A stretch of DNA of 64,000 bases from Candidatus Bathyarchaeota archaeon (GCA_963833575.1 CAWHXY010000004.1:32001-96000); one strand, 5' to 3'; counted from the first letter of the stretch, positions 6,531 through 59,334 are shown. A program made the numbers and translations. Notes: generated by a model not told the origin, from the letters alone.

Positions 6531-6538
6531 CTATCTCT

Positions 6539-7378: not shown

Positions 7379-7382
7379 TATC

Positions 7383-8258: not shown

Positions 8259-8272
8259 TGCTTCATCCTCCT

Positions 8273-9202: not shown

Positions 9203-9266
9203 CTCTATAGTGCCTCAATATTTGGGTTAATATAAAAAAAATATGGGAATAATATCATATTAAGCT

Positions 9267-10598: not shown

Positions 10599-11145
10599 TA
10601 AAACAACTATTTAGTACTTTGTTATATGAGGATGTTCTCCATAAACAATATATACTATATATAATTCAATGTAAATATGTATAGTTTGAATGTAAAAGCA
10701 TGGCAATAAAAAAATTGCAAATTAAGAGAAAAACATATACACACTTGACAAAAAATCGCTCTGGATAAGATGTATATAAAGCAGGAAAAGAAGCAACAAA
10801 GGAAACAGCATCATGGAGTTACATTTGTTATTCCATGGTCAAATCAATAGATAGCGCTCGCAAATTAAGAAATTCCTTCTCAGTTATCGGTTGATAGATC
10901 GTTTGTATTAAACAAGAACAAATGTTATGATAGTTTTCTGATGGTAAGAAGAGGATCGGTTTTGCGGACTCATTCAAAGTTGTTGAACCACCAGATATTT
11001 AGTTTTCATATTTCTACTTGCTACTACATATTGGCTAAAGGTGCAACATTTTATATAGAAAAACTCAATATTATCAATAGTCTATATAGATATACCTAAT
11101 ATAATTAGTATTCCGTAGAAGCATTAAGTTGGAGCCAGGTCAAGC

Positions 11146-19207: not shown

Positions 19208-20702
<1,495 letters not shown>

Positions 20703-27987: not shown

Positions 27988-29556
27988 ATGATAACTATGG
28001 AAACCATAATTTCTCCAAAATTTAAACGAACAACTGGGAAAGAGGTTTGGCGAGAAAACCTGCGTCTATCTATTTTTGCAGCTGACAAAATCAGGAGTAC
28101 ACTGGGTCCACAGGGCGCATACAAATTGGTTTCGTACAACCGTGGTCCCGAACAAGTAGTCAAGATTACCAAGGATGCTATTGCAATTCTAGATGAACTT
28201 GCAATTCAATACCCTCCTGCCGTCATCATTGCCGAAGCTGCCAAGATGCAACGTGAAGAAGCTGGGGATGGGGTAGCATCTTTTGTTATACTGTTATCTG
28301 CTCTTCTGAAAAGGGCGGATGTGCTCTTGTCCAATAAAATACATGCTAACATCATAATTCATGGTTACAGATTAGCGCAAGATCACGCGTTGGAAGTTAT
28401 AGACAAAAAGGCTGTGGTTTACAACGGTAGAAAGGAAGACGTTTTAGACGTTGTTGACTGCAAAAGAAAGCTCTTAACATCAAATTTGCGATTAATGATA
28501 ATTCAAGCTTACCCGCTAGCTTTTTCGGAAGGGAGATTTGATAAGGAAAATATTAGATTTTTAAAGAAAACAGGCGGCAGCATCCAGGAATCAAACTTGA
28601 TCAAAGGAGTCGTCATAAAAAAAGAAAAGGCACATCCTAACATGCCCGACAGGATGGAAAACTTGCGAATAGCCATTACCAATGAAAGACCAGGAATAAA
28701 CCGTTTGGATGTTAAAATGAAGGGAGAAGGTCCAGCTCAGATCAAATTAAATATTAAGAACGCAGACCAAATAAGAAAATACAAAGACGCTGAAAACAAG
28801 CTAAGATTTCAATCTTTAGACAAAATGGTTGCGCTAAAAGCAAACGTTTTGCTATGCGAACAACCAATCGACGAAAGTTTGAAAGATAAACTTCTTTTCG
28901 ATGGGATTTTTACTCTTGAAAGAGTTGACCAGAAAGATACGCAGGCAGTTGCCAAAGCTACAGGCGCCAAAATTGTAGGAAAACTTGCAGACCTAACGGA
29001 AGAGGATTTAGGTAGAGCAGATGAGCTATTTACAGACAGAATAGCGCTTGAAAAAACAGTTACTTTCCAAGGGTGTAAAGGAGCAGCCTTTGTGCTCAGA
29101 GGAAACACTACTCAAACAATTGATGAACTTGAAACTGCAATCCGCAACAGCCTGACACTTCTAAAAGTTTTGGACGATGACGACAGGGTCTTACCTGGCA
29201 GTGGAGCAGCTGAAGTTCACATCGCAGAAGAGCTCAAACAGTATGCAAAGGACTTTGCAAGCAGGGAACAAATTGCGATTGAATCATTCGGAGATGCGTT
29301 GATGGATATTCCAACTTGCTTAGCTGAAAATTATGGTTTAAACCCTACCGACATCCTGCCTGAATTAAGAAAGTGTCATGCTGAAGGGCTTAGCAACTAC
29401 GGTGTATCTGAACAAAGGTGCAGTGAAATGGTTTGCTCAGAACCAATTAAAGTGAAGCATTCGATAATTAGGAGGGCTTATGAGGTTTCATCTATGATGC
29501 TCCAGATAGATGAACTGTTAATCTCAAAAGAGATTCCCAAATTCCATAAAAAATAG
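27988..29556 (+). CDS. Divergent group II chaperonin (TCP-1/thermosome family)
   Basis: IRSTLGPQG, GDG, VLRG, LAENYG, IDE; ATP motifs degenerate. Confidence 0.85.
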   Translation: MITMETIISPKFKRTTGKEVWRENLRLSIFAADKIRSTLGPQGAYKLVSYNRGPEQVVKITKDAIAILDELAIQYPPAVIIAEAAKMQREEAGDGVASFVILLSALLKRADVLLSNKIHANIIIHGYRLAQDHALEVIDKKAVVYNGRKEDVLDVVDCKRKLLTSNLRLMIIQAYPLAFSEGRFDKENIRFLKKTGGSIQESNLIKGVVIKKEKAHPNMPDRMENLRIAITNERPGINRLDVKMKGEGPAQIKLNIKNADQIRKYKDAENKLRFQSLDKMVALKANVLLCEQPIDESLKDKLLFDGIFTLERVDQKDTQAVAKATGAKIVGKLADLTEEDLGRADELFTDRIALEKTVTFQGCKGAAFVLRGNTTQTIDELETAIRNSLTLLKVLDDDDRVLPGSGAAEVHIAEELKQYAKDFASREQIAIESFGDALMDIPTCLAENYGLNPTDILPELRKCHAEGLSNYGVSEQRCSEMVCSEPIKVKHSIIRRAYEVSSMMLQIDELLISKEIPKFHKK

Positions 29557-29621
29557 CAAAAACGAAAACTGATGGAAGAAAGCAGTCTAAAATCAAAGCC
29601 ACAAAAGCCAATAACTTTTGT

Positions 29622-30053
29622 TTAGTTTGGCATTGTAAAGTAGACGACCGCGCCTAAGGCAATGCTAGTAAGCCATAGAATAGCTGTAATAACCATCCAT
29701 TTCTTAGTGTTTTTCGGCAGATCATTGAATGCAAAAATTAGCGTCAGAGCCATAGCAGGAAATCCTATTACGGCATGAACAATTTGTGTGATTGAGAAGG
29801 CTGAAGTTGGGTTCATGTTTGGGTTGATGTAGAAGAAGACAAGTGAAGGGAGCATTACCACCAATGCCGCAATCAAGGTTAAACCAACGGCACCTGTCAT
29901 AATCCAACGGTGAAGCTGAAAAGAGTCTTTGTTTTTTATTTTTCCGAAAGCAAATCCTATGATTCCTAATCCAAGAGCAACGAATACTAGCATTAGAGAT
30001 TCTTGTTGCAATAGAGGAGGAACAACCATATTAGCGCCCGCACTCATGCTCAA
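29622..30053 (-). CDS. DUF420-like 4-TM protein
   Basis: Four TM helices with the H-R-x-x-M and H...G pattern; family is commonly next to oxidase operons. Confidence 0.65.
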   Translation of the reverse strand: MSMSAGANMVVPPLLQQESLMLVFVALGLGIIGFAFGKIKNKDSFQLHRWIMTGAVGLTLIAALVVMLPSLVFFYINPNMNPTSAFSITQIVHAVIGFPAMALTLIFAFNDLPKNTKKWMVITAILWLTSIALGAVVYFTMPN

Positions 30054-30102
30054 AACTTGGTTCTCCTTAAGAAAGAATCACATTCGGTCGTAATATACTT
30101 CT

Positions 30103-30137
30103 TTGTGACTGTGCGAAAGCAACCACAACAGTTAAAA
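30103..30137 (+). promoter_or_regulatory. Shared upstream motif + TATA (cupredoxin promoter)
   Basis: TTGTGACTGTGCGAAAGCAACCACAACAGTTAAAA; near-copy at 32563-32598. Confidence 0.55.
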
Positions 30138-30197
30138 CTTGCTTTTCCCTTAATTTCGATTTAGTATTTTAGAGCTCATTTTTCAGGTGAAAACTAA

Positions 30198-30734
30198 ATG
30201 ATGACTCAAACCCCAAAAAAAAGTAATATCGCTTGGTATATTGCTGCAGTACTCATCATAATTGTCATAATTGCGTCAAGTGGTCTTACGTATCAATATA
30301 CTAAACCAAACAGTCCTTCACCATCGCCAACCTCATCAACATCTCCTTCAGGATCACCGTCGGCGGGAAGCGTAACTATAACGATTTACGCAGGTGAAAT
30401 AAATTCGTCAGTATACGGTTTTGGAAATACAGAAAGCAACATAACTTCGCCAGGGCCAACATTTACAGTTAAAGTTGGAACGACAGTCACAGTTGACTTT
30501 ACGAATGCAGGAACCATGCAGCATAATTGGGCTTTAGTTACTGAAAAAACCGCTGGAAACACCAATTTAGCTTTCAGCAAAGCTCAAATCGCATCGGGAA
30601 GCTACGCCGTTTCGCCGGGAGGAAAAGGGTCAGCAACATTCGTGGCCAATAAGGCAGGAACATATTACTATATTTGCCAAGTAGATGCACATGTAGTGCT
30701 AGGAATGTGGGGAACATTCATAGTGACCCCATAA
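30198..30734 (+). CDS. Membrane-anchored cupredoxin (sulfocyanin/rusticyanin-like)
   Basis: N-terminal TM, S/P linker, PGPT, HN...YYYICQVDAHVVLGM type-1 Cu ligands. Confidence 0.88.
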   Translation: MMTQTPKKSNIAWYIAAVLIIIVIIASSGLTYQYTKPNSPSPSPTSSTSPSGSPSAGSVTITIYAGEINSSVYGFGNTESNITSPGPTFTVKVGTTVTVDFTNAGTMQHNWALVTEKTAGNTNLAFSKAQIASGSYAVSPGGKGSATFVANKAGTYYYICQVDAHVVLGMWGTFIVTP

Positions 30735-30766
30735 AGCCCAACATAATTTTCTCAAGATGGAAAATG

Positions 30767-32338
30767 TTAGGAAGAATCTGACGTTTCGTCAGAATTTGCT
30801 TTTTTACCTGTTGTCTCATTTCTCTTTTTACGCCTTGACAGCTTTTGCAAAGACGGAAAGAGTATAGACGTTCTTGCTCGAATGATCTTTCTTGTTTCAA
30901 GGCTAGCATGAGATTTTGTCATCAGCTTTTCTATCTCCATCTTGCTTCTTTCTAGTCTTTCGGTGAATTCTATATCAGAAATCTTCCCTTCTGACCTTAA
31001 CCTTTGAACCTCTTCTATAGATGAAGATATTTTTTCGAATTCCTCATCGAGCGCAGTTTCCTTAAAAGCATCTGAATCAGGTATTTTACGCCTCACGTAA
31101 CGGAATAGGATAGGCACCTGGATCATGATTGAAATAAAAGCGACGCCAAAAACCATTGTGTTTATTGTGTGTAAATCGGTTTGAGAAATGACTGCTGAAG
31201 TAGTAATTGTGGCTGCAAGCGCGATTGAAAGGGCACCTCTAACTCCACCTAACATAGCGACGTTGGCCCAAATGAGTGACATTTTTCCGCTAATCTTTCT
31301 AAAAAAGGCGAATATCGGATAAACTGTGGCAGCTCTGGCTGCGGTAACAGCTGCAAAAGCAGCGACTATTATCACAAGTGATTGGGGAAAAGTTTTGATT
31401 ATGTTTGCTTGAAATCCTATAAGAAGAAAAGCTACCGAGTTACCAAGGAAGGCGGCTAACTCCCAAAAAATTGTTACAGCCTCTCTAGTAGCTGGCTCCA
31501 TTGCGGTTCGAATAGTATTATTTCCAAAGTATAATCCTGCAACAGCGACAGCAATTAGTCCAGATGCGCCAATGCCAGAGGCAAGCGCATAAGAGCCGTA
31601 AACAACTACGATTGTCAATATGGTTTCGGCAACTCTATCCTCAATTAAACTCGACAGGATTTCACCTACGAATGCAACGCCTAACCCAATTAAAACGCCA
31701 GCACCGAGGGTGAACCCAAAATTAAGAAATGAACCAACTAAAGTTATTTGCTGCAATCCTATCGACGAGAGTATTATGGTAAAAATAATGATTGCAGTAG
31801 CATCATTAAACGCTGCCTCAGTATCTAGGATCGTTGAAAGTTTGGATGGAACTTTCACGCGTCGAAACACTTCTAATACTGTCACGACATCGGTCGGAGC
31901 TATTAATGCAGCGAACAGAAAAGAAACATATGAAGAAAGACCAACTACTTTCCACAAAATCAATCCTCCAACTGAAGTTGCTATCAAAACACCAACGGTT
32001 GCAAGTGCCAACGAAGGCTTAATTACTGCTTTCAGGTCGCTTCCACGAATATGAATCATCGCCTCAAAAATCAAGGGAGGAACAATTAAACCAACAAAAA
32101 GACCACCGCCGCCCCCCTGGATTAACTGATTATAAATTAATTGAATTTGCAAAGAGATGTTTTGCATGGGAACTTGAAGCAGCCCGCCTTGAACAGACAG
32201 CAAAGCTACAATTATGCTGATCAACACGCCGGTGAAAACTAAAACCAATGTATATGGAACTTTAAACCGTATTGAAATGAGGGCAGCTACAAAAGTCAAA
32301 AGCAAGAATGCTGATATGACTAATTCTATACTTGCCAT
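30767..32338 (-). CDS. CPA1 Na+/H+ antiporter (NhaP-like)
   Basis: PPLIFE, APTDVV, EAAFND, GVRGA. Confidence 0.92.
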   Translation of the reverse strand: MASIELVISAFLLLTFVAALISIRFKVPYTLVLVFTGVLISIIVALLSVQGGLLQVPMQNISLQIQLIYNQLIQGGGGGLFVGLIVPPLIFEAMIHIRGSDLKAVIKPSLALATVGVLIATSVGGLILWKVVGLSSYVSFLFAALIAPTDVVTVLEVFRRVKVPSKLSTILDTEAAFNDATAIIIFTIILSSIGLQQITLVGSFLNFGFTLGAGVLIGLGVAFVGEILSSLIEDRVAETILTIVVVYGSYALASGIGASGLIAVAVAGLYFGNNTIRTAMEPATREAVTIFWELAAFLGNSVAFLLIGFQANIIKTFPQSLVIIVAAFAAVTAARAATVYPIFAFFRKISGKMSLIWANVAMLGGVRGALSIALAATITTSAVISQTDLHTINTMVFGVAFISIMIQVPILFRYVRRKIPDSDAFKETALDEEFEKISSSIEEVQRLRSEGKISDIEFTERLERSKMEIEKLMTKSHASLETRKIIRARTSILFPSLQKLSRRKKRNETTGKKANSDETSDSS

Positions 32339-32562
32339 CAGCCGTTCGCCCTCTAGTCTTAATTTTAATTATGCTTTTCATATCAAGGTGCTTAATCAAT
32401 CTCTCGCTACCGATTAATAACCAAGCTCTTACTAACGGATTAAACAAAGCCTTAGCGACTATGGTCGATTAATAGCAGTATTAACACAAATTTTCTGAAT
32501 TGATTTTTTTTATGAAAATTTCTTAAATAAAGTCAATTCCATGTCTGTTTGCCATTGCTAAC

Positions 32563-32598
32563 TTGTGACTGTACTAAGCAACCAACACAGCTTTAAAA
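32563..32598 (+). promoter_or_regulatory. Shared upstream motif + TATA (cox operon promoter)
   Basis: TTGTGACTGTACTAAGCAACCAACACAGCTTTAAAA. Confidence 0.55.
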
Positions 32599-32693
32599 CT
32601 AAAAAATTCTGACTATTACATAACCACTTTTCGAACTTCTGTTAGAAGTAAAACTAAAGAAATCATAGTGGTCTAAAATAAACAGGCTAAACC

Positions 32694-33368
32694 ATGTCAC
32701 AACCATTACCTCCCTCAGCGGTAGATTGGAATAATCTCTTCAATTTAGCCGCCTTCATAGCAATGGCAGCAGTAGCCATAGTCATGGGTGCAATGATTTT
32801 CTTTGCGATAAAATATCGCGAGAAAAAAGGGCAAGCAAACTATATTCCACAAATAGAATTATCAAAAGGTCGTGCCAGAGAAGCTGTGATTTTCGCCATG
32901 ATCTCGATAATAATTTTGACCAGCCTGACAATAGCTTCTTACAGACTTACGCCTAATGAGAGGTTTCCTCCTCCAGTTTCACAAAGTTTAGTAATAGACG
33001 TGACTGCTCACCAATGGTATTTTAATTTCACTTATCCCAACGGAGTATACTACGTTGGAACATGTTATGTACCCGCCAACAAAAGCATAATTTTTAACGT
33101 AACAAGCGCTGACGTTATGCATGATTTTGGCCTAATGGACTTCAGGGTCAAAATTGATGCGATACCAGGTAGATACAACGTAATTGGGGTTACTACTCCA
33201 CCTTTAGTTGGAAATAGTCAACTAAACTACACTATTCGATGTTACGAACTCTGTGGCGGTTCACACACCACCATGCAAGCACCGCTTATAGTTCTAGACC
33301 CTACTATTTTCAATCAGTGGCTCACTAACCAGACGGCCACAAACTCAACAGCATCAGGAGGAAGCTAA
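32694..33368 (+). CDS. coxB: Heme-copper oxidase subunit II with CuA site
   Basis: Two TMs, HQWYF, DVMH, CYELCGGSHTTM. Confidence 0.95.
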   Translation: MSQPLPPSAVDWNNLFNLAAFIAMAAVAIVMGAMIFFAIKYREKKGQANYIPQIELSKGRAREAVIFAMISIIILTSLTIASYRLTPNERFPPPVSQSLVIDVTAHQWYFNFTYPNGVYYVGTCYVPANKSIIFNVTSADVMHDFGLMDFRVKIDAIPGRYNVIGVTTPPLVGNSQLNYTIRCYELCGGSHTTMQAPLIVLDPTIFNQWLTNQTATNSTASGGS

Positions 33369-33372
33369 AAGC

Positions 33373-34956
33373 ATGTATCAAGGCTTCTCCCTCAAAGAGT
33401 GGCTAACCACAACCAACCACAAGCGAATAGGCATACTTTACATCATAACAGCAGTCTTTTTCCTAATAATTGCAGGATCACTCGGCATGCTCATGAGAGT
33501 TCAACTTGCTGCGCCAATGCAAAATTTCCTTGACGCATATCAGTATGATCAAGTTGTCACTTTACACGGACTTTTAATGATTCTATGGGTTCTCACACCA
33601 CTAGGAGCCGGATTAGCAAATTACATTGTACCACTCCAAATAGGCGCAAAAGACTTAGCGTTTCCCCGTTTAAACGCAACAAGCTACTGGACATACCTTT
33701 TCAGCGGAGTACTCCTTGTCGGAACAGTGTTTCTTCCTAATGGCGCACCAAACACAGGCTGGACTCTCTACGCACCACTAAATACCATCCAGTTTTCCCC
33801 TCAACCAGGAGCAACACTTGCAATTTTGGCACTTGGACTACTTGCAGTTTCAATAACAATGGCATCAATTAATTTTATCACAACCATCGTAAAAAACAGA
33901 GCAAAAGGAGTAACCTGGACACGCCTACCAATCTTCACCTGGTCCATATTGATGACTATGGCGCTGGCACTTTTCGCGTTTCCTCCGCTAGCAGCAGGAC
34001 TGGCATTGCTAACAAGCGACAGAATTCTAGGCACCGTCTTCTTCAGCTCTACACAAGGAGGCAGTATTTTATGGGACGAACTTTTCTGGTTTTTCGGGCA
34101 TCCAGAAGTTTACATTGTCGTGTTTCCGGCCTTAGGCATAATTGCAGAAGTTTTCATGACATTTGCTAAAAAGCCCCTGTTCCAGAGAAAAATTTTCATA
34201 ATAGAGTTTGCCGCAGTGACTTTTCTAAGTTTGGGAGTGTGGATGCACCATATGTTCACAACAGGAGTGAACTATGACGTGCTTCAAGCCTTCTCGGTTA
34301 CGACATTGGCTATTTCCATACCTTTTGAAGGTCTAGTTCTCGGCTTAGTTCTGACTCTCTATAAAGGGAGGATAAAGTTCACTGCGCCTATGCTTTACTG
34401 CATAGCTGCCATATTTACTGTCACTCTCGGCGGCGTCACAGGCGTCTTACAAGCCTTCCCAACATTAGATTACGCTTTCCGAGGCACATACTGGATAGTA
34501 GGGCACTTTCACTATGTCATGGCGGGAACCACACTATTCGGGCTTATTGCAGGGCTCTATTATTGGTGGCCAAAAATAACTAAGCGAAAATACAATGAAA
34601 CTGCCGCCAAAATCACATTTGCAATTTCATTCGTCGGATTTAATGTTCTCTATTTTCCGTATTTCTTCCTGTTAGATATGCCAAGGAGAATATCGACTTA
34701 CACTGTGCTCTCTGGCTGGGCATCTTTGAATTTTGATGCAACCGTCGGCGCTTTCGTTTTCGGACCCGCCGTCATATTGACTATACTAAATCTCATTATA
34801 AGTTACAGGAAAAATGTGCCTTGCGGACCGAATCCTTGGGAGGCAAAAGAGATGGAGTGGACAGGCGACTACAGCGGATCTGCAACTGTTACCCAAACAG
34901 CCACAACTCCCAACAATCTTGAGAACTCAAAGCCAAATGAGGATAATTCAAAATGA
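33373..34956 (+). CDS. coxA: Heme-copper oxidase subunit I (A-family)
   Basis: [46 protein letters not shown]. Confidence 0.97.
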
Positions 34957-35726
34957 AAGATGAAAAATCACAAACTGAAGAAAACAAATCTAGCTTCATG
35001 CCGCTCATAATTGCCGGAGGAGTCGCATTGTTCCTACTGGGACTTGCAATTTACATTCCGCTCCTCGTGGCTGGACTAATCATCGTCGCGGTTGCACTAC
35101 TCAAAGTATACAAAGACGGAAATGGGGAAAAGTTCGCCCAAACGAAAGAGACTGAGGAAGAAAAATTTCCTCTTGAATCGGTAAGTAAAGAGAAACTTGG
35201 ATTATGGATTTTTCTTGCATCCGAAATCTTGATTTTCGGATCCCTCATAGTCGCTTACATATATGTTCGAGTGAACAGCGTTTCGTGGCCAATAGCAACG
35301 CAAACACACGACGTACTGCTCGGAATGACAAACACAATTATTCTTCTTACGAGTAGCTTGACTATGATTTTGGCTCTTTACTCAATAAGAGCAGGCAACG
35401 TAAAAGGATTAAAAATCTGTTTAGGCAGCACCGTTGCGTTGGGCGTAGCTTTCTTAAGCATTAAGCTCGGAGTTGAATGGCCTGCTCTTATCCGCAACGG
35501 ATTCTCCATAAACAGTGGCTTGCCAGCCTCTACCTACTACGTGCTAACAGGACTTCATGCCATGCATGTTGCTGTGGGCTTAGTAGCAATTGGGTACTTA
35601 ATGATTCGAACATTTAACGGAGGATTCACCAGCACAAAACATGTTGCTGTGGAAAACATTGGGTTGTACTGGCACTTTGTGGACATCGTATGGATGTTCC
35701 TCTTTCCGCTTTTTTACTTGATTTAG
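34953..35726 (+). CDS. coxC: Heme-copper oxidase subunit III
   Basis: [31 protein letters not shown]. Confidence 0.95.
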
Positions 35727-35736
35727 GTGAAAAAAA

Positions 35737-36006
35737 ATGGCTGGAATAAAACTCTATATAGGAATCTGGCTTGGACTTGTGATAGCAACGGTTATGGAAG
35801 TTGTTGTTAGGTCTCTGCCAGGGGGAGAATCGTTAATTGTGCTTGTCATAGGTTTAATTGCCGGCGCAAAAGCCATCGTTATAGCGTTGTATTATCAGCA
35901 TCTGCGTTACGAAGGAATTAGACTCGCTACTCTACCTTTAGCTGCTGTTGTAGGCGTCGTTTTCCTAGGAGTTTCTGCCGCATTTACTCTTGCAATGGGG
36001 ATGTAA
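35737..36006 (+). CDS. coxD: Heme-copper oxidase subunit IV
   Basis: Three TMs with AKA..IALYYQHLRYE motif. Confidence 0.85.
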   Translation: MAGIKLYIGIWLGLVIATVMEVVVRSLPGGESLIVLVIGLIAGAKAIVIALYYQHLRYEGIRLATLPLAAVVGVVFLGVSAAFTLAMGM

Positions 36007-36008
36007 AC

Positions 36009-36530
36009 ATGCATAAATCAGACGTATCGCTTATCGCAATCATAGGTTTGGCAGCAATTTTCTACTTTGCAACAATGTCCATGCTGGTCTTTCATATTCA
36101 GCTTCCTTTAACGGCAAGTTCAAGTATTTCAGGCAAAACGCCAACAGTCAACATTATACTCTATGAGGGAGAAAATTCTGGCGGTCAATATGGCTTTGGC
36201 TATTCGCCAAACACTTTAACGTCACCTGGACCCACGCTTAGATTCACAACCTCCGATATTGTGAACATAACCGTCATAAACGTGGGAAAAGTACCCCATG
36301 CTTTCGCCATTACCAATGCCCCCCGAACTGGAGCGGGTGTACTCTTCAACGCTAAAATTGGATCAGAAAGCAATCCGCTTCAGCCAGCACAAGAAGGCTC
36401 AGTTGTTTTTGAGCCCAACTTAACCGGCTCGACATTTAGCTACATTTGCCCAGTTTCAGGGCAGGCTGAAGAGGGTATGTATGGTTCGATTATAATCAGC
36501 ACGATTTCAGGAACTGGAATGGGAATGTAA
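36009..36530 (+). CDS. Second membrane-anchored cupredoxin (C-terminal His ligand replaced by Gln)
   Basis: Paralogous to 30198-30734 (YGFG..SPGPT); PHAF...YICPVSGQAEEGM. Confidence 0.82.
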   Translation: MHKSDVSLIAIIGLAAIFYFATMSMLVFHIQLPLTASSSISGKTPTVNIILYEGENSGGQYGFGYSPNTLTSPGPTLRFTTSDIVNITVINVGKVPHAFAITNAPRTGAGVLFNAKIGSESNPLQPAQEGSVVFEPNLTGSTFSYICPVSGQAEEGMYGSIIISTISGTGMGM

Positions 36531-36537
36531 ACTTTCA

Positions 36538-37425
36538 ATGATAGGACAAATAATGTTTATGAAGCAAAAAATAGGAAAATATGTTGAGCTTACAAAGCCA
36601 AAAGTGACTCTCCTAAATCTACTTGTAGGCGTCACTTGCTTTGTACTTGCAGCATTTCCTACAGTTGACTGGTTAAAATTGGGAGTGTTTGCGGTTGTGG
36701 GTTATTTGGCTGCAGGTGGATGCGGTGTTTTGAACAGCGTTTACGACCAAGACATTGATAAGTTAATGCCGAGGACTTCAAAAAGAGCAATCCCATCTGG
36801 ATATGTAGACCAAATTAAGGCGTTAATGTTTGGCATTGCAATGATTGTTGGAAGCTTTGCCATCTCCTACTTATTTTTTAACCCGTTGACCGCCTTAATG
36901 CTCGGAGTTGGAGCAACCTTTTACCTCATAATCTATACTGTATGGCTGAAGCGAATCAGCCCTTGGAATGTGGTTATTGGTGGATTCGCTGGTTGTTTTG
37001 CTGCACTTTCAGGTTGGACAGCCGCCGTCAACACGTTAAGTTTAATGCCTTTGCTGGTTGCAATGCTTGATTTTCTGTGGACACCTGGACATCTTTGGGG
37101 ACTCGCTATCAAAAAAATCAGGGAATACAGAAATGCTAAGATTCCAATGTTGCCTGTTAAAGTCGGCATAAGCAAGGCTTCAAAAATTGTTTTTCTTCTG
37201 AATGTTTTCACAGTGGCTTTCTCTCTACTATTTCCCCTTCTACAGCTCACAGGCATCATTTACTTGGCCATTGCGTTAGTTGCTGGGAGCGGGTTTCTTT
37301 TCCAAAATCGAAGCTTAATATTTTCTACTTCTGAAGTAGCTGGATTCAAAGTATTTGTTGCTTCAATGCCATATTTAACGTGTTTAATGTTAGGGCTGAT
37401 TGTTGACAAACTTATCCTAATCTAG
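36538..37425 (+). CDS. ctaB: Protoheme IX farnesyltransferase (heme O synthase)
   Basis: LTKPK, DQDIDKLMPRTSKRAIP, YTVWLKR, WTPGH. Confidence 0.95.
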   Translation: MIGQIMFMKQKIGKYVELTKPKVTLLNLLVGVTCFVLAAFPTVDWLKLGVFAVVGYLAAGGCGVLNSVYDQDIDKLMPRTSKRAIPSGYVDQIKALMFGIAMIVGSFAISYLFFNPLTALMLGVGATFYLIIYTVWLKRISPWNVVIGGFAGCFAALSGWTAAVNTLSLMPLLVAMLDFLWTPGHLWGLAIKKIREYRNAKIPMLPVKVGISKASKIVFLLNVFTVAFSLLFPLLQLTGIIYLAIALVAGSGFLFQNRSLIFSTSEVAGFKVFVASMPYLTCLMLGLIVDKLILI

Positions 37426-38004
37426 ACGGGGCTTAATTCTTGGAACATGGGATTTTTGGGTAACTTCACTTATTTGTTCTACCCTGTCTGTCCATCCTAG
37501 ACTGCGGTATAATTCAGATGCAATTGAAAGAGGCGTCACAGCTATTTTCTTCCCAACAACATAAACATAATCAGGAGTAAAATCGAGCACGTAACCCCAA
37601 TCCCATTCTCCAACCTTAAATTGCAGGTTCCCTTCAACCTTAACTTTAACACCGTTTAAACAAAAATCGAAATAGTAACTTCTAACATAAACCGGGTATT
37701 CTTTGCCTTCAATCATTGCGTTTCTTGTGAGACGTTGGACCTGAAAAGTGATTTGCTGCGATGCAAATTCCTGAAATGCATAAAAAATTAGTTGTGCATC
37801 ATCTTTTGACGTCACGATTTCTATATGGTCAGGTTCAACTTTCACTATTCTCAGGTGCTCTGCCAAGTCGCCGCTGACAACCCACTTAATATTAGTATTT
37901 TCAAGTTTATCATGCAATACAATCAATGCGTCGACGTATTGCTTTGGGGTAACACTTACGAAGTTGCTAAATTGATCCCAAAACTCTTTGCTTGTAATGC
38001 TCAT
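37417..38004 (-). CDS. Hypothetical protein, nucleotidyltransferase-like fold
   Basis: WVVSGDLA...VEPDHIEI resembles a degenerate GS...DID motif. Confidence 0.55.
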   Translation of the reverse strand: MSITSKEFWDQFSNFVSVTPKQYVDALIVLHDKLENTNIKWVVSGDLAEHLRIVKVEPDHIEIVTSKDDAQLIFYAFQEFASQQITFQVQRLTRNAMIEGKEYPVYVRSYYFDFCLNGVKVKVEGNLQFKVGEWDWGYVLDFTPDYVYVVGKKIAVTPLSIASELYRSLGWTDRVEQISEVTQKSHVPRIKPRLD

Positions 38005-38034
38005 AGCAAACGCTCAAAACAAAAAAAGGTAAAT

Positions 38035-39858
38035 TTATTGTGTAACCAGTGGACCCGGACTTGCCAAGTACCTCTTTATTCCGTCGGCAGCAAGATAGAC
38101 CATGGCTCCAGCAACATGAGTTCCAGCGGTTAAGTTATCGCCGAAAGTATCACAGATTTCTCCGGCAGCAAACAAGTTTTCACTTGTCCAACATTGCATC
38201 CATTTATTAAACACTGAAGTAGCAGAGTTTGAGCCTGTTCTTGCGCCGCCTCTCATATGGTGCCCCCACCAGTCAACGTGTTGGGATAGTTCAGCGACAG
38301 TAGTTTTTTTAATTGCTGAAGCGTTTCCCATTTTGCCCAAAATATCTGTGATGTAGGTTGATTTGTTAATGAGGTAGTTTGACACTCGGTATGTGTTGGC
38401 GTCCCAGTCCAGAGTTATTCTTCCGCATGGGTCTCCGTAAATATCGTTGTAGTGAGGATCTAAGTCGGCGTAATGTTCCAGAAGAGGTAAATTTGGGCCA
38501 GTTCCTGAAAGGGTTGCTGTTATTTTCTGGGGTATTTTTTCATCTTTAAGTGTAGCTTTCCAGGTGCTTCCAAAGTTAGTTCTACTAGGCAAGTGTGTAG
38601 TGAAGGTGTTGGGTCCACTTCCCAAATAGTTGCCAAAGCTAAGCAGAACGCCACCCATGAAACTCAAGTCATCTGAATGACTGAATTTTGGGTTAACCTC
38701 ATTCAAATCCATTATTCCATATCCGCCGCCGGCAGCATTTCCACTGACATAAGTGTTTGCCCCAACATCTAGCTGAACGCTTGCGCTTGAAGTTGCTGGA
38801 TAGTAGCCTTCGGTTAAGCCTCGTCCTAAAGAACCCGTGTGCTTAACAGGATCATATGGAACGCCCATGCCTGAGAGAAGCATAGCTCGTATTAGGTTAT
38901 AGCCCCACAAACCATTGAACACGACTTTTGCAGGTTGAACATGTACTTTGCCAGTAGAATCATAATATCTAACGCCAGTCGCTTTTCCCGTGTTATCGGT
39001 GTCTATTCGAAACACGTAGGATTCAGTGCGTAAGTCAAACAATCCTGTGTTAACAGCGGCGGGTATTGTTGTAACATGCGAACTGCTTTTGGCACCTACT
39101 TCACATGGATAATTGCATAAGCCGCCGCACCATCCACAATAAACACAACCGTTTCGAGATATACCGTATTGATTTGTGTAACCACCGCTTATCAAGCCGT
39201 TCACACTTGGAAAAGGAGTGTAGCCAAGGCTTTCAACAGCGTTTTTGAAGATTGGCGCATATGCGGTTTCCGGGTGAGGAGGCATTGGAAACTTGGCGTT
39301 CGGAATAAATGGGTCTTGATTCGTGCCGACTACGCCGATAGCTTGCTCCCATTGGTTATAATATGGGACCATATCATCGTAGCTTACCGGCCAGTCTTCT
39401 AAGTCGAGTGTGCCGCCTTTAACACTGTCTACTATCGTTTGGTATCCTGCGTCACCATACTTTGCTTTAGTCATCGTAACGGGTTGGTATGACCAAGGAG
39501 AAAATCTTCCTAAGCCACCACCATAATGGGTTCCGACACCGCCAACAGCATGCCCTAAAGCATGATACTGAATATTTTTTGTGTAGCGTCTTACTGGTAA
39601 GGCAAATTGGCCGTCGGTGTTTCGAATTGTGAAAGTTGAAATATACAGAGGATGATCAAACTTTCGTTCCACTGCAATTGCCCATTCATCATCTTTGTTA
39701 TCTTGCCGCCAGTCAGTTGTATAGTCCCAGAAAGGACCTTTTTCTATACCGACAACATTGTATTTTGCAGCGGTAAGTTCAGCGGCTATCGGACCGCCCA
39801 TATGGCCAAGACCACATACCACAACATCGGTTTGGGGATGATTAATAACAGCAGACAT
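38035..39858 (-). CDS. GMC oxidoreductase, gluconate 2-dehydrogenase flavoprotein-like subunit
   Basis: GLGHMGG FAD loop, GGVGTHY, DWPVSY, Cys cluster, DLDPHY.D.YG.P; start MSAVINH at 39858. Confidence 0.88.
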   Translation of the reverse strand: MSAVINHPQTDVVVCGLGHMGGPIAAELTAAKYNVVGIEKGPFWDYTTDWRQDNKDDEWAIAVERKFDHPLYISTFTIRNTDGQFALPVRRYTKNIQYHALGHAVGGVGTHYGGGLGRFSPWSYQPVTMTKAKYGDAGYQTIVDSVKGGTLDLEDWPVSYDDMVPYYNQWEQAIGVVGTNQDPFIPNAKFPMPPHPETAYAPIFKNAVESLGYTPFPSVNGLISGGYTNQYGISRNGCVYCGWCGGLCNYPCEVGAKSSSHVTTIPAAVNTGLFDLRTESYVFRIDTDNTGKATGVRYYDSTGKVHVQPAKVVFNGLWGYNLIRAMLLSGMGVPYDPVKHTGSLGRGLTEGYYPATSSASVQLDVGANTYVSGNAAGGGYGIMDLNEVNPKFSHSDDLSFMGGVLLSFGNYLGSGPNTFTTHLPSRTNFGSTWKATLKDEKIPQKITATLSGTGPNLPLLEHYADLDPHYNDIYGDPCGRITLDWDANTYRVSNYLINKSTYITDILGKMGNASAIKKTTVAELSQHVDWWGHHMRGGARTGSNSATSVFNKWMQCWTSENLFAAGEICDTFGDNLTAGTHVAGAMVYLAADGIKRYLASPGPLVTQ

Positions 39859-39859
39859 T

Positions 39860-40720
39860 TTACATACCTCCGCCTTCTTTCTGAAGATCACCCAAACTCT
39901 TGGGTTTTAACCGAGTAGGCGTTCCTGCAACCATTAACTTCTTTGCGCCTAAGCCAATGTCGTCTCCCCAGTAATTACCGTTAAAAGCTAATAGTTTCCA
40001 CCCTACTAATCCCTGGTTTCCGCCATATGCTGGATCAGCCCAGAAGCCAGCGACAACCATATCGTGAACTTCATTGAAGAATTCAGCGGCATTTGGACCC
40101 TGAAAAGCAGTCTGCAACGCTGTATTGCTTGATTTATTATCGAACAAATCTTGAAGCACCGATATCTGATCAGCAGAAGAAAGGATTTCAAATGGATTAT
40201 TTTTTGATGCCTTGCTATAATTTTCAAGAAATACGAGTCCTCGACGCCAGAACTCTCTTGGATTAAAAGCATACTGGTAAGCTGTTCCCGCCTGTAAACG
40301 CGGCGTTATGGTCCCTGTATAAGATATTGAACTTTTCGTTGTGTTCGGATAGACTGCTCCTATAACAGAGAGGGCACCAGCTTGTGGAGTAACAAATGGC
40401 CCCTGAAGATACATGTTGCCTCCTTTTCCATAGCTTCCAGCTAACATGTGGTCAATAAAATAGATGACACCAGCTTCTTTGGCGCCTGGACCGTTGCTAT
40501 CCGTTGGAATTATGGCTTCGGCTAAAGCTTCAACTATTAGACGTTCTGTTCCATTTAAAGTCAAGAATACTTGAGCACCTTGGTTCTGCTGCTGGCTCAC
40601 GTTGTTCTTTTCATTATTGATTGTATTTTCAAGAATGGGAATTTCAATTGCGCTTGCAACTCCAACACCTATCGCCGCTGCAGCACCAATTTTAATAAAT
40701 TCACGCCTATTCATCGGCAA
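39860..40720 (-). CDS. Gluconate 2-dehydrogenase subunit 3 (gamma)-like protein with Tat signal
   Basis: MNRREFIK Tat motif; IIPTD..GPGA.EAGV.YFID; DPAYGGN..VGW. Confidence 0.9.
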   Translation of the reverse strand: MPMNRREFIKIGAAAAIGVGVASAIEIPILENTINNEKNNVSQQQNQGAQVFLTLNGTERLIVEALAEAIIPTDSNGPGAKEAGVIYFIDHMLAGSYGKGGNMYLQGPFVTPQAGALSVIGAVYPNTTKSSISYTGTITPRLQAGTAYQYAFNPREFWRRGLVFLENYSKASKNNPFEILSSADQISVLQDLFDNKSSNTALQTAFQGPNAAEFFNEVHDMVVAGFWADPAYGGNQGLVGWKLLAFNGNYWGDDIGLGAKKLMVAGTPTRLKPKSLGDLQKEGGGM

Positions 40721-40882
40721 AAAACACCTTAACTAGCATAAACAAAAAAGAGCTTTTAAGTTTATGTTGTAGTCTAGTGCTTGCAACAACAACCAAGAGC
40801 TAAGAAGATACCTACCACTTAACATCAACTAACTGGTTAAGCAATCCCCTATTCTATCAGGAAGGGTACTTCCTTAATCATA

Positions 40883-41191
40883 TTAAAACTCTGGAACATC
40901 ATCAAAGTTGTCGGAAGCTACAGTGTTTTTTAAGTCAGTTCTAACGAAGTCTTTCCCATCCACAGTTACGAGATGTACATCTTGGCCTTTGCGCCATTTG
41001 CCCATAGGAGTTCTAAAAACTGTAGCGTAGGTACAACCTTCCTTTATTTTTGAAATAAGGTCAGTTCTGGAAAAAATGATGTTCTCGCAAACTACACAGC
41101 CAAAATCCGAATGGCACTCTACACAATCTATTTGCTTCTGGTCGGGGCTAGTTCTGACTGCAGAGACTAAGTAATCAGCCCATTTATCCAT
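40883..41191 (-). CDS. DUF3892-like protein
   Basis: WADYLVSAVR...W.KG..V...RTD.....DN...PEF pattern. Confidence 0.75.
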   Translation of the reverse strand: MDKWADYLVSAVRTSPDQKQIDCVECHSDFGCVVCENIIFSRTDLISKIKEGCTYATVFRTPMGKWRKGQDVHLVTVDGKDFVRTDLKNTVASDNFDDVPEF

Positions 41192-41414
41192 ATATATCGC
41201 CTGCCGCTGTCTTATTTCGAAGTATTATTTAACGCTTATTGAACATAGCAGAGAATATTTTAAAAATATTTAATATGCTCTAACAAAAAGAATTGGCTGC
41301 AAGGATATCTTTTGTCTATTTGAAGCTCAAAGTTTTGTTCCATTTGTTATAATAAAAACTAAAAAGGGATGAACTGGTTTCTACCGACAGAAATCCTGTT
41401 TTGAAAGATAGCAT

Positions 41415-41762
<348 letters not shown>

Positions 41763-41814
41763 TCACTCCATTAACATTGCACACAACAAGCTTAGCTATT
41801 AACTTTTTTCTTAA

Positions 41815-41991
41815 TTAACTTCTTTTCTCTTCATTGGAGGAAGCGCTCGACAGCTCTTCACTCATCTTGTAGGCTTTTTCCTTTAGCACGTTGATTTCTT
41901 CGCGAAGTCTATTCATTTCCCTATCTTTTGCCTGCTCAATGGCCAGGTTAAATTTGTTGAAGTCTTCATCTAACTTGTCCTTATTTGTCAA
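41815..41991 (-). CDS. Small coiled-coil protein (58 aa), not in ORF track
   Basis: TTG start; MTNKDKLDEDFNKFNLAIEQAKDREMNRLREEINVLKEKAYKMSEELSSASSNEEKRS fills the usp-atpK gap. Confidence 0.6.
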   Translation of the reverse strand: MTNKDKLDEDFNKFNLAIEQAKDREMNRLREEINVLKEKAYKMSEELSSASSNEEKRS

Positions 41992-42010
41992 AGAATAGGT
42001 GCTCCAACAT

Positions 42011-42454
42011 CTATTTCACAACTAGGACGGGGCAATGAGCGTATTCAATCACGCGTTCGGCTACGCTGCCGATGAGAATTCTTTCGGCGCCTCTTCGTCC
42101 GTAAGTTCCAAGCACAATTAAATCCATTTCTAAGCCGTTAGACAGATGTACAATTTGCTCAAATGGTCTTCCCTTTGCAATCAAAGACGTTGCTTTAACG
42201 CCTTCTTTATCAGCTAAACCCAGAATATAATTGACGTATCGTTGACCGTCATCTTTGAGTTCCCTTTCGATATCTTCGCGTTCTGTTACTTTGGCAAATC
42301 TGTCGATAACAACTTCATCTAACACGTAAACGACCATAATTTGTGCATCGTGGGTTTTGGCGATGCTTATGGCGTATTCTGCAGCATGAATGCTGTAGTC
42401 GGATCCATCGGTGGGTACCAAGATTTTTTTTATGGTTTGCGAACTGAACTTCAT
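42011..42454 (-). CDS. Universal stress protein
   Basis: KILVPTDGS, G..GR.G...LIGSVAERV..AHCPVLVVK. Confidence 0.93.
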   Translation of the reverse strand: MKFSSQTIKKILVPTDGSDYSIHAAEYAISIAKTHDAQIMVVYVLDEVVIDRFAKVTEREDIERELKDDGQRYVNYILGLADKEGVKATSLIAKGRPFEQIVHLSNGLEMDLIVLGTYGRRGAERILIGSVAERVIEYAHCPVLVVK

Positions 42455-42455
42455 T

Positions 42456-43085
42456 TTATTTTCGCTCCTTAATTACACGTTTGATTATTTTAGTTCTAAC
42501 AAATTCTTCTCGATCTTTTTCTTCTAGCACCAGTTCAATCCATTTGGCTGTTTGGCGATACCTTGGGATAAGGACATAGTTTAAGGCGTTGACTCGACGC
42601 TGGGTTCTGCGTACATCGTTGGCTATCTGAAATGTAGTTCCTTCTGTTCTAGCTAAATCAGCGATTAAACTTAGAACACCATAGAATTGCTTGAATGCTT
42701 TGTCTAGTTCTACACTGGTGTTGGCAAATCCGTAGTCTGGTTTGACGTCAGGTTCACTTTGAAATTTTACAGATGGCACGGTTACGCCCATGATGCTTTT
42801 GTAATCTACGGTGTAGTGAGCTTCGGTGCTCGAGCCTAAAGCAACGCTAACAACTGTCTCTGAACCCTTTGCCATGTTTGCTTCCCTTAATTTTTGGTAA
42901 GCTTTCTCAAGAGTCTTCAGCAGTTCCTCGCGGGTGCTTTCGGCTTCATAAATACTGTTTCTTAATTCACGCAACAGTATGTCACGTTTACGTTCAAGGA
43001 CTTCGCGACCGGACTCTGCGAGGTTCAATGTCTTTTTTGTTTGAATCAAGTTTATTCTTGTGGGACTAACATTTTCAGAGGACAA
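42456..43085 (-). CDS. atpD: A/V-type ATP synthase subunit D
   Basis: PTRINL, LERKRD, TQRRVNAL, LEEKDRE. Confidence 0.95.
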   Translation of the reverse strand: MSSENVSPTRINLIQTKKTLNLAESGREVLERKRDILLRELRNSIYEAESTREELLKTLEKAYQKLREANMAKGSETVVSVALGSSTEAHYTVDYKSIMGVTVPSVKFQSEPDVKPDYGFANTSVELDKAFKQFYGVLSLIADLARTEGTTFQIANDVRRTQRRVNALNYVLIPRYRQTAKWIELVLEEKDREEFVRTKIIKRVIKERK

Positions 43086-43090
43086 TTTTG

Positions 43091-44497
43091 CTATTTGACC
43101 TCACTGGCAAATTTAGGATAGTACTTCTGAATATATTCAGGCTTTATGCTAGTTAATTCTTCGTCGGGTAACAATGAAAGCACATCCCAAGCAATTGAAA
43201 GTGTCTGTTCGATTGTGCGGTTCTCATTTTTACCCTGTTGGATAAGGGTTTTCTCGAAGGCTTCACCGAAGCGCAGGTATTCTTTGTCTCTTTGACCCAA
43301 ACCTTCCTCGCCGATAATGGTTACTAATGATTTCACTGAGTTGTATTGAGCATAAGCTGAATAAAGCTGGCTTGAAACGTTAGCGTGGTCTTCTCGTGTA
43401 CTATCTTTGCCGATTCCGTCTTTCATCAGTCGAGAAAGACTTGTAGATACGTAGATTGGCGGATAAATTCCCTGTTTCTCTAAAGAGCGAGACAAAACGA
43501 TTTGTCCCTCAGTAATGTATCCGGTGAGGTCAGGAATTGGATGAGTAATGTCGTCATTAGGCATTGTCAGAATTGGCATTTGTGTAATAGAGCCTTTTTT
43601 GCCATGGATTCTACCTGCCCGCTCATATATGCTTGCTAAGTCACTGTACATGTAACCTGGGTAACCTTTCCTGCTGGGTACTTCTTCCATCGAAGCACTA
43701 ACCTCTCGAAGAGCCTCACAATAGTTAGTCATGTCAGTCAAAATGACCAACACATGTGTATCTTGTTCATATGCCAGATACTCAGCTAAAGTCAAACCAG
43801 CTCTTGGAGTAATAATACGTTCCACTGGTGGGTCATCAGCCAAGTTGAGGAACATCGCAACGTTTTTTATTGCTCCAGTTTCCTCGAAGCTTTTACGGAA
43901 AAAGGCCGCATCATCGTGTTCTAAGCCCATTGCAATGAAAACTATAGAGAAGTCTTCCCCTCCACTGCGAATCTGCGCTTGCCTCACAATCTGGGCGGCA
44001 AGTTCATTATGCGCAAGACCCGGACCACTGAAAACAGGAAGTTTCTGTCCACGGACAAGACTAGTTAACCCATCAATAGCAGAAATGCCTGTTTGAATGA
44101 ATTCCTTGGGGTATTCTCGGGCTACAGGGTTCAGTGGGAAACCGTTGACATCGCGTTTTTCTTCTGTAAAGAAACGTGGGTGACCATCGATTGGTTCTCC
44201 GAAACTGTTCATAACGCGTCCAAGCATTTCTGTGGAAACTGGAACTTCTAATGGATGCCCAAGAAATCGCGTGCGTGTTTCTGAGGGCGATAAACCTGTC
44301 GTACCTTCGAAGACTTGTACGGTGACGGCTTTCTGTGTGATTTTGATAACTTTTCCCAAGCGTGTTTCGCCACTTTGAGTTTTAACTGCGACCAATTCAT
44401 CGTAGCCTACGCCCTGCACGTTTTCTACCACGATGATTGGACCAGAAATTGAAGCAACCCCTTTGTATTCCAATCTTGAGCTTGTTTTTGCTGCCAT
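43091..44497 (-). CDS. atpB: A/V-type ATP synthase subunit B
   Basis: [37 protein letters not shown]. Confidence 0.97.
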
Positions 44498-44502
44498 AGT
44501 AA

Positions 44503-57132: not shown

Positions 57133-59334
<2,202 letters not shown>

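Follow-up and report, generated by a model that had tools for sequence, protein, structure and literature searches.

A 64-kb stretch of DNA from the Candidatus Bathyarchaeota archaeon assembly GCA_963833575.1 (CAWHXY010000004.1:32001-96000; G000:C4:32001-96000 in our own numbering), referred to hereafter as the window, is part of a 1.19-Mb contig and carries between positions 29622 and 40720 an island of genes for a putative aerobic respiratory chain. The island includes a haem-copper oxidase cassette (coxBACD and accessory genes), genes for two small copper proteins (cupredoxins 1 and 2), and an operon for a flavin adenine dinucleotide (FAD) dehydrogenase of the GMC family with its gamma subunit. 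These genes had been named in an earlier reading made from the DNA alone (the sequence-only reading), and every gene listed there was confirmed in place by open reading frames (ORFs) as well as by Pfam and NCBIfam profiles. Related loci of the bathyarchaeal clade were surveyed by tblastn with the window proteins; 33 loci were found, two of them too short, and the 31 informative ones display a conserved order of thermosome, DUF420, (cupredoxin 1), coxBACD, cupredoxin 2, ctaB, a nucleotidyltransferase-fold gene, GMC, gamma, and ATP synthase.

The core of the oxidase is encoded by four genes on the plus strand, namely subunit II (CoxB, 32694-33368; COX2, 46.9 bits), subunit I (CoxA, 33373-34956; Pfam COX1, 448 bits versus a cut-off of 34.8), subunit III (CoxC, 34953-35726; COX3, 93.9 bits), and the small subunit IV (CoxD, 35737-36006; COX4_pro, 44.7 bits). 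CoxC is syntenic in 31/31 loci, and CoxD is present in 31/31 bathyarchaeal loci and in no Nitrososphaerales, haloarchaeal, or bacterial locus. With the NCBIfam models, CoxA scores 563.9 bits for TIGR02891, short of the equivalog cut-off of 670.75, and CoxB scores 137.9 bits for TIGR02866, under the cut-off of 147.7; both are clear homologues, yet they lie outside the curated equivalog range.

The CuA, haem, and CuB ligands, which the sequence-only reading had described as intact, indeed form complete sets when aligned to solved oxidases. In CoxA, the six histidines and the cross-linked tyrosine are all present (H65, H243, Y247, H292, H293, H378, and H380), and in CoxB, H143, C183, E185, C187, H191, and M194 align with the residues that bind CuA in R. 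sphaeroides subunit II. CoxA also keeps E245 in the GHPEV motif of helix VI and D94 of the D-channel. A helix VI glutamate together with a D-channel aspartate defines subtype A1. The island is shown to encode an A1-like haem-copper oxygen reductase of the A family, CoxBACD, whose CuA entry site is complete. The loss of CuA ligands that marks quinol oxidases is not seen, as all of them are retained in CoxB. The best solved match to CoxA is QoxB of the aa3-600 enzyme (6koc, 447.7 bits), whose R70, D74, H94, and E97, which we take to be the quinol site, face I33, L37, Q57, and Q60 of CoxA in the alignment, so that the quinol-site residues are absent.

In a quick maximum-likelihood tree (LG+G4) whose deep branches are unresolved, the bathyarchaeal CoxA proteins form one clade (29 rows, SH-aLRT 100, stem 0.76), with an unresolved archaeal group around it and the bacteria outside. 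A recent transfer of the oxidase from Thaumarchaeota is unsupported, since the bathyarchaeal CoxA is a separate, long-stemmed clade. The 29 closest CoxA loci (59-95% identity) are almost all from soil, bog, or peat metagenome-assembled genomes (MAGs) labelled Ca. Bathyarchaeota or Bathyarchaeia, and the next relatives, at ~50% identity, belong to Nitrososphaerales, haloarchaea, and Acidilobaceae. The labels of these closest relatives agree with the bathyarchaeal host that had been proposed for the window.

The genome comprises 2.75 Mb in 8 contigs (94.3% complete, 2.2% contamination) and clusters with 119 others as one genus of 120 genomes. It retains carbon monoxide dehydrogenase/acetyl-CoA synthase (CODH/ACS) and three genes of the POR family; CdhC occurs in 105/120 genus genomes and in 69/73 high-quality ones. 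The host is, as the sequence-only reading had supposed of its lineage, probably an 'anaerobic-type' Bathyarchaeon that bears the Wood-Ljungdahl pathway and pyruvate:ferredoxin oxidoreductase (PFOR). Bathyarchaeal cox islands were also encountered in bins labelled Limnocylindrales, Sulfotelmatobacter, and Nanoarchaeia (L016, L028, and L006), which are probably mis-binned contigs in public MAG sets. Such bacterial or Nanoarchaeia labels would fit the idea that the island of the window also belongs to a different organism and was brought in by mis-binning or a chimeric contig. This is extremely unlikely, because an archaeal 16S rRNA gene (window 19208-20702, minus strand), the cox island, and CdhC (C4:917097) lie together on the 1.19-Mb contig, along with an AhbD-like gene (haem b synthase), and the GC content is even between contigs (0.39-0.42). 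In addition, more than 20 independent MAGs with the label Bathyarchaeota show the same arrangement, with thermosome and A-type ATP synthase genes flanking the island. The contig is therefore not a chimeric bin fragment.

Several accessory genes accompany the oxidase. A haem O synthase (CtaB/CyoE; 36538-37425, plus strand) follows the cassette, with 258.6 bits for TIGR01473 (cut-off 210.3) and 172.8 bits for UbiA. Upstream, a CtaM-like membrane protein of the DUF420 family (29622-30053, minus strand) was assigned at the border of significance (Pfam DUF420, 30.6 bits versus a cut-off of 30.5). Its gene adjoins cox in 25/31 loci, and H48 and H93 are invariant in 20 sequences. In the sections of the source available, the CtaM family is described as needed late in A-family oxidase assembly (PMC9145763), and the DUF420 protein is likely an assembly factor for the oxidase as well. 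The possibility that it is a disguised compact haem A synthase was rejected (hhalign probability 1.5% versus six compact CtaA sequences). A Na+/H+ exchanger (30767-32338, minus strand; Na_H_Exchanger, 167 bits) had been counted among the members of the module; it is present where predicted and was found in just 3/31 related loci (L007, L008, and the window's own L001), and is an insert rather than a conserved part of the module.

Cupredoxin 1 (30198-30734, plus strand; Copper-bind, 36 bits) has a hydrophobic segment at its N-terminus and then a Ser/Pro-rich linker, and is also matched weakly by the rusticyanin and sulfocyanin models. H109, C160, H165, and M170 are invariant in 20 homologues and complete the type 1 copper set. 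A separate copy of cupredoxin 1 is located near cox in 21/31 loci. The protein is proposed to be a membrane-tethered type 1 blue copper protein that could serve as the mobile electron carrier. Some of its homologues (in L016, L017, L030, and L063) end in a PEFP/PEYP-like motif, a hydrophobic stretch, and basic residues, a tail that resembles an archaeal C-terminal sorting signal; it is found in genomes whose cupredoxin 2 has lost the cysteine.

Cupredoxin 2 (36009-36530, plus strand) is matched weakly (Cu-oxidase_3, 23.3 bits; rusticyanin model, 27 bits). It is encoded inside the cox operon, with H97, C147, and M157 kept and one canonical ligand lacking, since Gln152 replaces the C-terminal histidine that binds copper. 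At this position, histidine occurs in 19/31 cupredoxin 2 homologues, including the closest one (L007), and the cysteine is also lost in six. The gene lies between coxD and ctaB in 30/31 loci, and in L015 the best match is at the cupredoxin 1 position, upstream of coxB. A third cupredoxin of 185 aa, with the ligand motif intact, is encoded elsewhere in the genome (G000:C5:82760-83317, minus strand; L093:6761-7318), adjoining the genes for S19e and L31e.

On the other side of ctaB, three genes on the minus strand make up the dehydrogenase operon. The GMC-family FAD dehydrogenase (38035-39858 from an ATG start, or to 39891 from a GTG; GMC_oxred_N, 28 bits) has as its best solved relatives the alpha subunit of FAD-glucose dehydrogenase (6a2u_B, E 2e-9) and the large subunit of fructose dehydrogenase (7w2j_A). 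A cysteine-rich stretch aligns with the Fe-S cysteines of 6a2u_B, and C238, C244, C248, C252, H534, and H581 are invariant in 43 sequences; the subunit is predicted to contain FAD and a cysteine-bound Fe-S cluster. Homologues of 70-89% identity were found in Bathyarchaeia and in metagenomes of soil and peat. The gamma gene (39860-40720; Gluconate_2-dh3, 93.7 bits; TAT_signal, 18.8 bits) overlaps the GMC gene start and is the only PF13618 gene in the genome. In 20 sequences, the twin arginines (R5 and R6) of its signal for twin-arginine translocation (Tat) do not vary; the genome also encodes TatC, and gamma is presumed to act as the export escort of the flavoprotein.

The third gene, absent from the sequence-only reading, encodes a 195-aa nucleotidyltransferase-fold protein (37417-38004) that accompanies GMC and gamma in 22/22 loci having the pair, the inverted L028 included. 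Its structural model (pLDDT 89.4) best matches TM1012 (2ewr, E 1.3e-12, TM 0.84 by target length), a putative minimal nucleotidyltransferase, and no NCBIfam family was matched. Two convincing twin-arginine candidates, gamma and a multicopper oxidase of 760 aa, came out of a scan of the genome with a crude regular expression, which may have missed other exported donors; the multicopper oxidase has a strong signal and is located at G000:C6:53801-56083 on the minus strand (L109:5802-8084).

Bacterial flavoprotein dehydrogenases of the GMC/gamma type pass electrons to a multihaem cytochrome c subunit. The window had been noted to lack a CxxCH cytochrome c, a bc complex, and a haem A synthase, and these absences extend to the whole genome, in which a search for CtaA, cytochrome c maturation, a Rieske/cytochrome b complex, and quinone synthesis recognised none of them. 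Cytochrome_B and Cytochrom_B_N_2 had no match in the 94.3%-complete genome, and neither did Cytochrom_C_asm. Among 7045 ORFs (60 aa or longer), a single CxxCH motif occurs in 45 and two or more in none, and no cytochrome c partner was found elsewhere in the genome. COX15-CtaA (PF02628) was not found at E<=1, and the same family search found no CtaA in 3/3 related Bathyarchaeia genomes. As a control, a compact CtaA of 147-168 aa was recovered in 7/7 other archaeal genomes with a related CoxA. With regard to quinones, no member of the futalosine family was detected in the genome or in the 5 relatives searched. The genome has four UbiA-family genes, the haem O synthase and three whose best matches are of the DGGGP-synthase type, and no quinone-type prenyltransferase was recognised. 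Five Rieske genes were considered as a hidden complex III and rejected, as they are of the small, soluble ferredoxin type with no membrane partner.

Measured against a strict aa3 cytochrome c oxidase, the genome thus lacks a recognisable haem A synthase and c-type cytochrome donor. Of the parts of a flavoprotein-cytochrome c dehydrogenase, the Tat-type gamma subunit and the GMC subunit with its cysteine cluster are present, whereas a multihaem cytochrome c subunit was found neither in the operon nor in the genome. It appears highly probable that the island encodes a functional A-type oxidase that is fed by cupredoxin and free of cytochrome c.

The question of what feeds this oxidase was approached through its neighbours and its distribution. 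GMC and gamma adjoin cox in 22/31 informative loci. In L028, the dehydrogenase block is inverted and upstream, still next to cox, and in L008, L019, and L030, a full-length GMC/gamma pair that is only ~49% identical occupies the same position. Within the genus, COX1 was found in 46/120 genomes, comprising 27 with an intact oxidase of the window's type, 7 with broken or partial copies (some with in-frame stops), and 15 with another type, three of which also carry the window's type. Gamma is present in 31/120 genus genomes, that is, in 27/34 with a window-type oxidase (intact or broken) and in 4/86 without; in a class sample of 401 genomes, it occurs in 19/77 COX1-positive and 6/324 COX1-negative ones. 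In G371, from another genus, gamma lies ~7 kb from coxA. Thus, the co-occurrence and synteny of GMC/gamma and cox anticipated by the sequence-only reading are seen in other genomes.

The second type of haem-copper oxidase subunit I is ~480 aa long (COX1 ~258-272 bits, intact copies) and absent from the window's genome; its carriers are G330, G462, G469, G347, G409, G471, G401, G450, G423, G422, G445, G304, G193, G352, and G465. Copies of the window-type coxA with in-frame stops or fragmentation were located at G475:C17:25567-26911, G447:C8:88011-89302, and G413:C3:70006-71245, and gamma is also broken in G447, G413, G409, and G353. In some species, the island is therefore being lost.

The neighbouring ATP synthase had been taken as a functional hint, which did not hold. 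Its adjacency carries no functional weight because the operon is also present in four cox-negative relatives that lack island genes there: in these genus members, the ATP synthase genes have no island gene and no thermosome within ~18 kb. G403 gave no AtpD match. As synteny differs in cox-negative members, the borders of the island are not definable.

A second line of evidence comes from cytochrome b, which is encoded in 19/120 genus genomes and is ~505 aa long in 15 of these. Its context was checked in 3 of these 15 genomes (G410, G383, and G435), where the cluster adjoins the genes for S19e, a dsDNA-binding protein, and L31e, in the order (polyprenyl synthase), Tat-signal Rieske, cytochrome b, cupredoxin, UbiE-like methyltransferase, and UbiA-like prenyltransferase. 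The Rieske proteins of these relatives (L104:6422-7378, L106:6481-7437, and L108:896-1849) have an unusual architecture, with a cytochrome-b5-like domain N-terminal of the Tat signal. At the S19e/L31e locus of the window's genome, cupredoxin 3 stands alone and is 56% identical to that of G410; tblastn with the G383 module detected no cytochrome b and no UbiA-like prenyltransferase in that genome.

Of the 27 genomes whose oxidase is intact, gamma is found in 21, and the long cytochrome b accompanies it in 4 of these. All 6 that lack gamma have the long cytochrome b, and none of the 27 lacks both; gamma without any cytochrome b is the state of 16/27, the window's genome included. This complementarity is significant by Fisher's exact test (p = 0.0007), although the genomes are relatives and their independence is overstated. 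The pattern reads as two alternative feeds of the same copper/CuA oxidase, and the window's genome has the dehydrogenase route only.

The history of the island was examined by comparison with L007. The ratio of nonsynonymous to synonymous substitution rates (dN/dS) is 0.04-0.20 in all eleven comparable island genes (0.10 for CoxA and 0.05 for GMC), which indicates that the island genes are maintained. Nucleotide identity, compared in two halves (window 29452-37451 and 37452-45451), is 87-92% from DUF420 to ctaB, 73-82% in the dehydrogenase operon, and 72-80% in the thermosome/ATP synthase genes; the synonymous rate (dS) is 0.32-0.52 in the cox block and 1.1-2.1 for gamma, GMC, and atpD. These values suggest that the oxidase cassette was recently exchanged between lineages by recombination and that the dehydrogenase operon diverged with the genome. 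Such a recent exchange fits the patchy distribution of the cassette.

One may then ask whether the island is a decaying remnant, in which the Rieske/cytochrome b/quinone module has been lost and the oxidase, left without electron supply, is becoming a pseudogene. The lone cupredoxin where relatives hold a complex-III-like cluster, the ligand lost from cupredoxin 2, and the CoxA and gamma pseudogenes of other genus members are in line with this scenario. It is nevertheless very unlikely, given that every oxidase ligand is intact, that dN/dS in the compared island genes is 0.04-0.20, that the gamma-only state is common to 16/27 intact-oxidase genomes, and that the cox block looks recently exchanged rather than abandoned.

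In the favoured explanation, the exported GMC/gamma dehydrogenase would oxidise a sugar, sugar acid, or polyol outside the membrane, and electrons from its FAD and Fe-S cluster would pass to a membrane-tethered cupredoxin, for which cupredoxin 1 is the best candidate. The cupredoxin would deliver single electrons to CuA, from which they would move through the haems and CuB to O2, and the oxidase would use haem O and/or haem B instead of haem A. Substrate protons released outside, protons for O2 reduction taken from inside, and pumping of the A1 type could together build a proton motive force without a quinone loop. An outside-facing short chain of this kind had been put forward by the sequence-only reading; its freedom from cytochrome c, now across the genome, and the co-occurrence of cox and GMC stand, and the transfer from dehydrogenase through cupredoxin to CuA is still inferred. 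The chances that the full chain from dehydrogenase to cupredoxin to CuA oxidase operates in this Bathyarchaeon are judged to be evenly balanced. The wider proposal is advanced tentatively and with some doubt: that of a three-component chain free of quinones and of cytochromes b and c, whose input is interchangeable with a Rieske/cytochrome b/quinone module within the genus, and whose cassette moves between species by recombination.

A number of observations weigh against this explanation. The absences described above rest on profile searches of a genome of which ~6% is missing. A cupredoxin as the acceptor of GMC/gamma electrons is so far a proposal, and co-folding of GMC, gamma, and cupredoxin 1 gave scores of 0.01 and 0.00, which count neither way. 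Cupredoxin 2, a protein of the cupredoxin fold, here has a degenerate, non-canonical copper site. The cox and dehydrogenase operons run towards each other and are not co-transcribed, and no GMC pair was found within the flank examined in 9/31 loci, in one of which (L006) the contig ends just past ctaB. Gamma and cox are on different contigs in g94, a genus of another family, and because the genomes counted are relatives and the genes linked, the association statistics overstate independence. The contrast in identity to L007 means that the cox and GMC/gamma blocks differ in recent history and are not one inherited unit, although such separate inheritance cuts both ways for a functional link. 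In addition, the genome contains an 11-subunit complex-I-like operon with no NuoEFG beside it, which hints at some unrecognised membrane electron carrier.

Alternatively, another donor could feed the oxidase, either the third cupredoxin by way of some membrane enzyme or a lipophilic carrier of the complex-I-like enzyme. GMC/gamma would then neighbour cox as an 'oxic lifestyle' gene and pass its electrons to O2, humic quinones, or another acceptor. The differing divergence of the two blocks, the convergent operons, the unlinked genes of g94, the loci with cox and no nearby GMC pair, and a complex-I-like operon without a known acceptor all suit this alternative, as does the occurrence of GMC homologues (49-61% identity) in MAGs that carry a Thaumarchaeota or Nitrososphaerales label, a group that has quinones and complex III. 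It is considered unlikely, however, because no intact-oxidase genome (0/27) lacks both gamma and cytochrome b, gamma is nearly restricted to oxidase-bearing genomes, and the adjacency persists through the inversion in L028 and the GMC type swap in L008, L019, and L030. The genome yielded no quinone prenyltransferase and no cytochrome b or c, and the invariant cysteine cluster of GMC, aligned as it is with the Fe-S cysteines of FAD-glucose dehydrogenase, favours a protein acceptor over O2.

The proposed dehydrogenase-cupredoxin-oxidase chain may also have a protective side. In soil or peat with a fluctuating water table, it could remove O2 around the oxygen-sensitive CODH/ACS and PFOR. That protection is the main role of the same wiring, with energy conservation incidental, would be consistent with the CdhC and three POR-family genes that are kept (CdhC being common throughout the genus), with the KatG-like catalase-peroxidase and AhpC/TSA protein encoded in the same window, and with a patchy island (any COX1 in 46/120) that has pseudogenes in G475, G447, and G413, as might be expected of an accessory trait. 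Nonetheless, CoxA retains D94 and E245, the D-channel residues of pumping A1 enzymes, all compared island genes are under purifying selection, and a dedicated substrate dehydrogenase would be needless for a pure scavenger, so that protection as the main role is rather unlikely. The two roles are not mutually exclusive, and sequence alone cannot separate them.

Some other genes of the window deserve mention. The KatG-like gene (57151-59334, plus strand) encodes a 727-aa protein with two peroxidase-family stretches; it is situated where the GC content of the window peaks (0.50 versus ~0.41) and may be acquired. At 51087-52253 on the minus strand lies a fusion of an AhpC/TSA peroxiredoxin domain with one that resembles cytidylate kinase. 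A phosphate ABC transporter and two PhoU-domain genes were found at 5880-12195, and a polyphosphate kinase 2 gene is present at 15925-16869, upstream of the rRNA gene.

An aerobic trait in this lineage is less of a surprise than the sequence-only reading had assumed, as the aerobic potential of other soil and peat Bathyarchaeia was published in 2023-2025. In the portions of these papers available, the genus Houtuousia is described as having cox genes and lacking the Wood-Ljungdahl pathway and PFOR (PMC10321748), 'Ca. Paludivitaceae' BC38-41 as having 'aa3' coxABCD and an aerobic CO dehydrogenase (PMC11619403), and the FEN-987 MAG SPRUCE 533 as having oxygen respiration potential (PMC12296737); all three are from soil or peat. 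The coxABCD-type genes are interpreted there as pointing to (micro)aerobic or facultative life, and the accessible text of a review repeats the aerobic potential of Bathyarchaeia (PMC12694404). Unlike Houtuousia and Paludivitaceae, the window's genome keeps CdhC and POR. The same portions of the published accounts make no mention of electron donors, cupredoxins, a GMC dehydrogenase, or the absence of haem A synthase and of cytochromes b and c; their supplementary tables may list members of the genus. For gluconate 2-dehydrogenase and archaeal lineages, the enzyme term appeared, among the matches listed and in the excerpts they give, only in a study of soil phosphorus cycling, and nothing relevant was present among the matches listed for GMC, Bathyarchaeia, and cupredoxin.

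The oxidase in soil and peat Bathyarchaeia being already known, the new part is the proposed input route, free of quinones and cytochromes. The oxidase is not limited to lineages without the anaerobic core; a large genus of soil and peat, in which CODH/ACS and PFOR are retained, has it too. The data are suggestive of the simplest kind of aerobic chain known, consisting of a dehydrogenase, one copper protein, and an oxidase, for which no quinone, cytochrome b or c, or haem A would be needed. If this is true, the arrival of oxygen in the peat would allow an archaeon with a Wood-Ljungdahl/PFOR core to respire extracellular sugars or sugar acids. The either-or pattern of GMC and cytochrome b over 27 genomes offers a concrete, testable answer to what feeds such oxidases, and it suggests a cupredoxin as a new physiological partner for a dehydrogenase family used in biosensors.

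Among known systems, the ammonia-oxidising Thaumarchaeota (Nitrososphaeria) have a copper-based respiratory chain free of cytochrome c. Like them, the Bathyarchaeon described here has an A-family CuA oxidase, with a CoxA that is ~50% identical and in the same archaeal tree group, and cupredoxins that would replace cytochrome c; some relatives in the genus also carry a matching Rieske-cytochrome b-cupredoxin module. Unlike them, the window's genome has no Rieske/cytochrome b complex, recognisable quinone genes, or compact haem A synthase, the last of which was found in 3/3 Nitrososphaerales/Thaumarchaeota genomes tested. Furthermore, its CoxA and CoxC are separate genes, CoxD is present, GMC/gamma lies beside cox, and the host keeps CODH/ACS.

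In Sulfolobales and haloarchaea, sulfocyanin (of the SoxM complex) and halocyanin, respectively, are copper proteins reduced by a quinol-using Rieske/cytochrome b complex. A membrane-anchored cupredoxin proposed to feed a CuA haem-copper oxidase is shared with these systems, whereas no Rieske/cytochrome b complex was found in the window's genome. On the dehydrogenase side, the Tat-type small subunit and GMC FAD subunit are like those of the FAD-glucose dehydrogenase of Burkholderia cepacia (6a2u), the fructose dehydrogenase of Gluconobacter (7w2j), and gluconate 2-dehydrogenase. The differences from those bacterial complexes are the lack of a cytochrome c subunit in the genome, the low similarity (E 2e-9), the third gene of nucleotidyltransferase fold, and the archaeal host; the proposed acceptor is a blue copper protein here and haem c plus ubiquinone there.

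Methylamine dehydrogenase with amicyanin and the rusticyanin chain of Acidithiobacillus lead from an extracytoplasmic oxidation through a cupredoxin to an A-type oxidase, with the quinone bypassed. Although these chains have c-type cytochromes between cupredoxin and oxidase, and use tryptophan tryptophylquinone (TTQ) enzymes or haem enzymes of the outer membrane in place of a GMC flavoprotein, the chain proposed for the Bathyarchaeon would follow the same logic.

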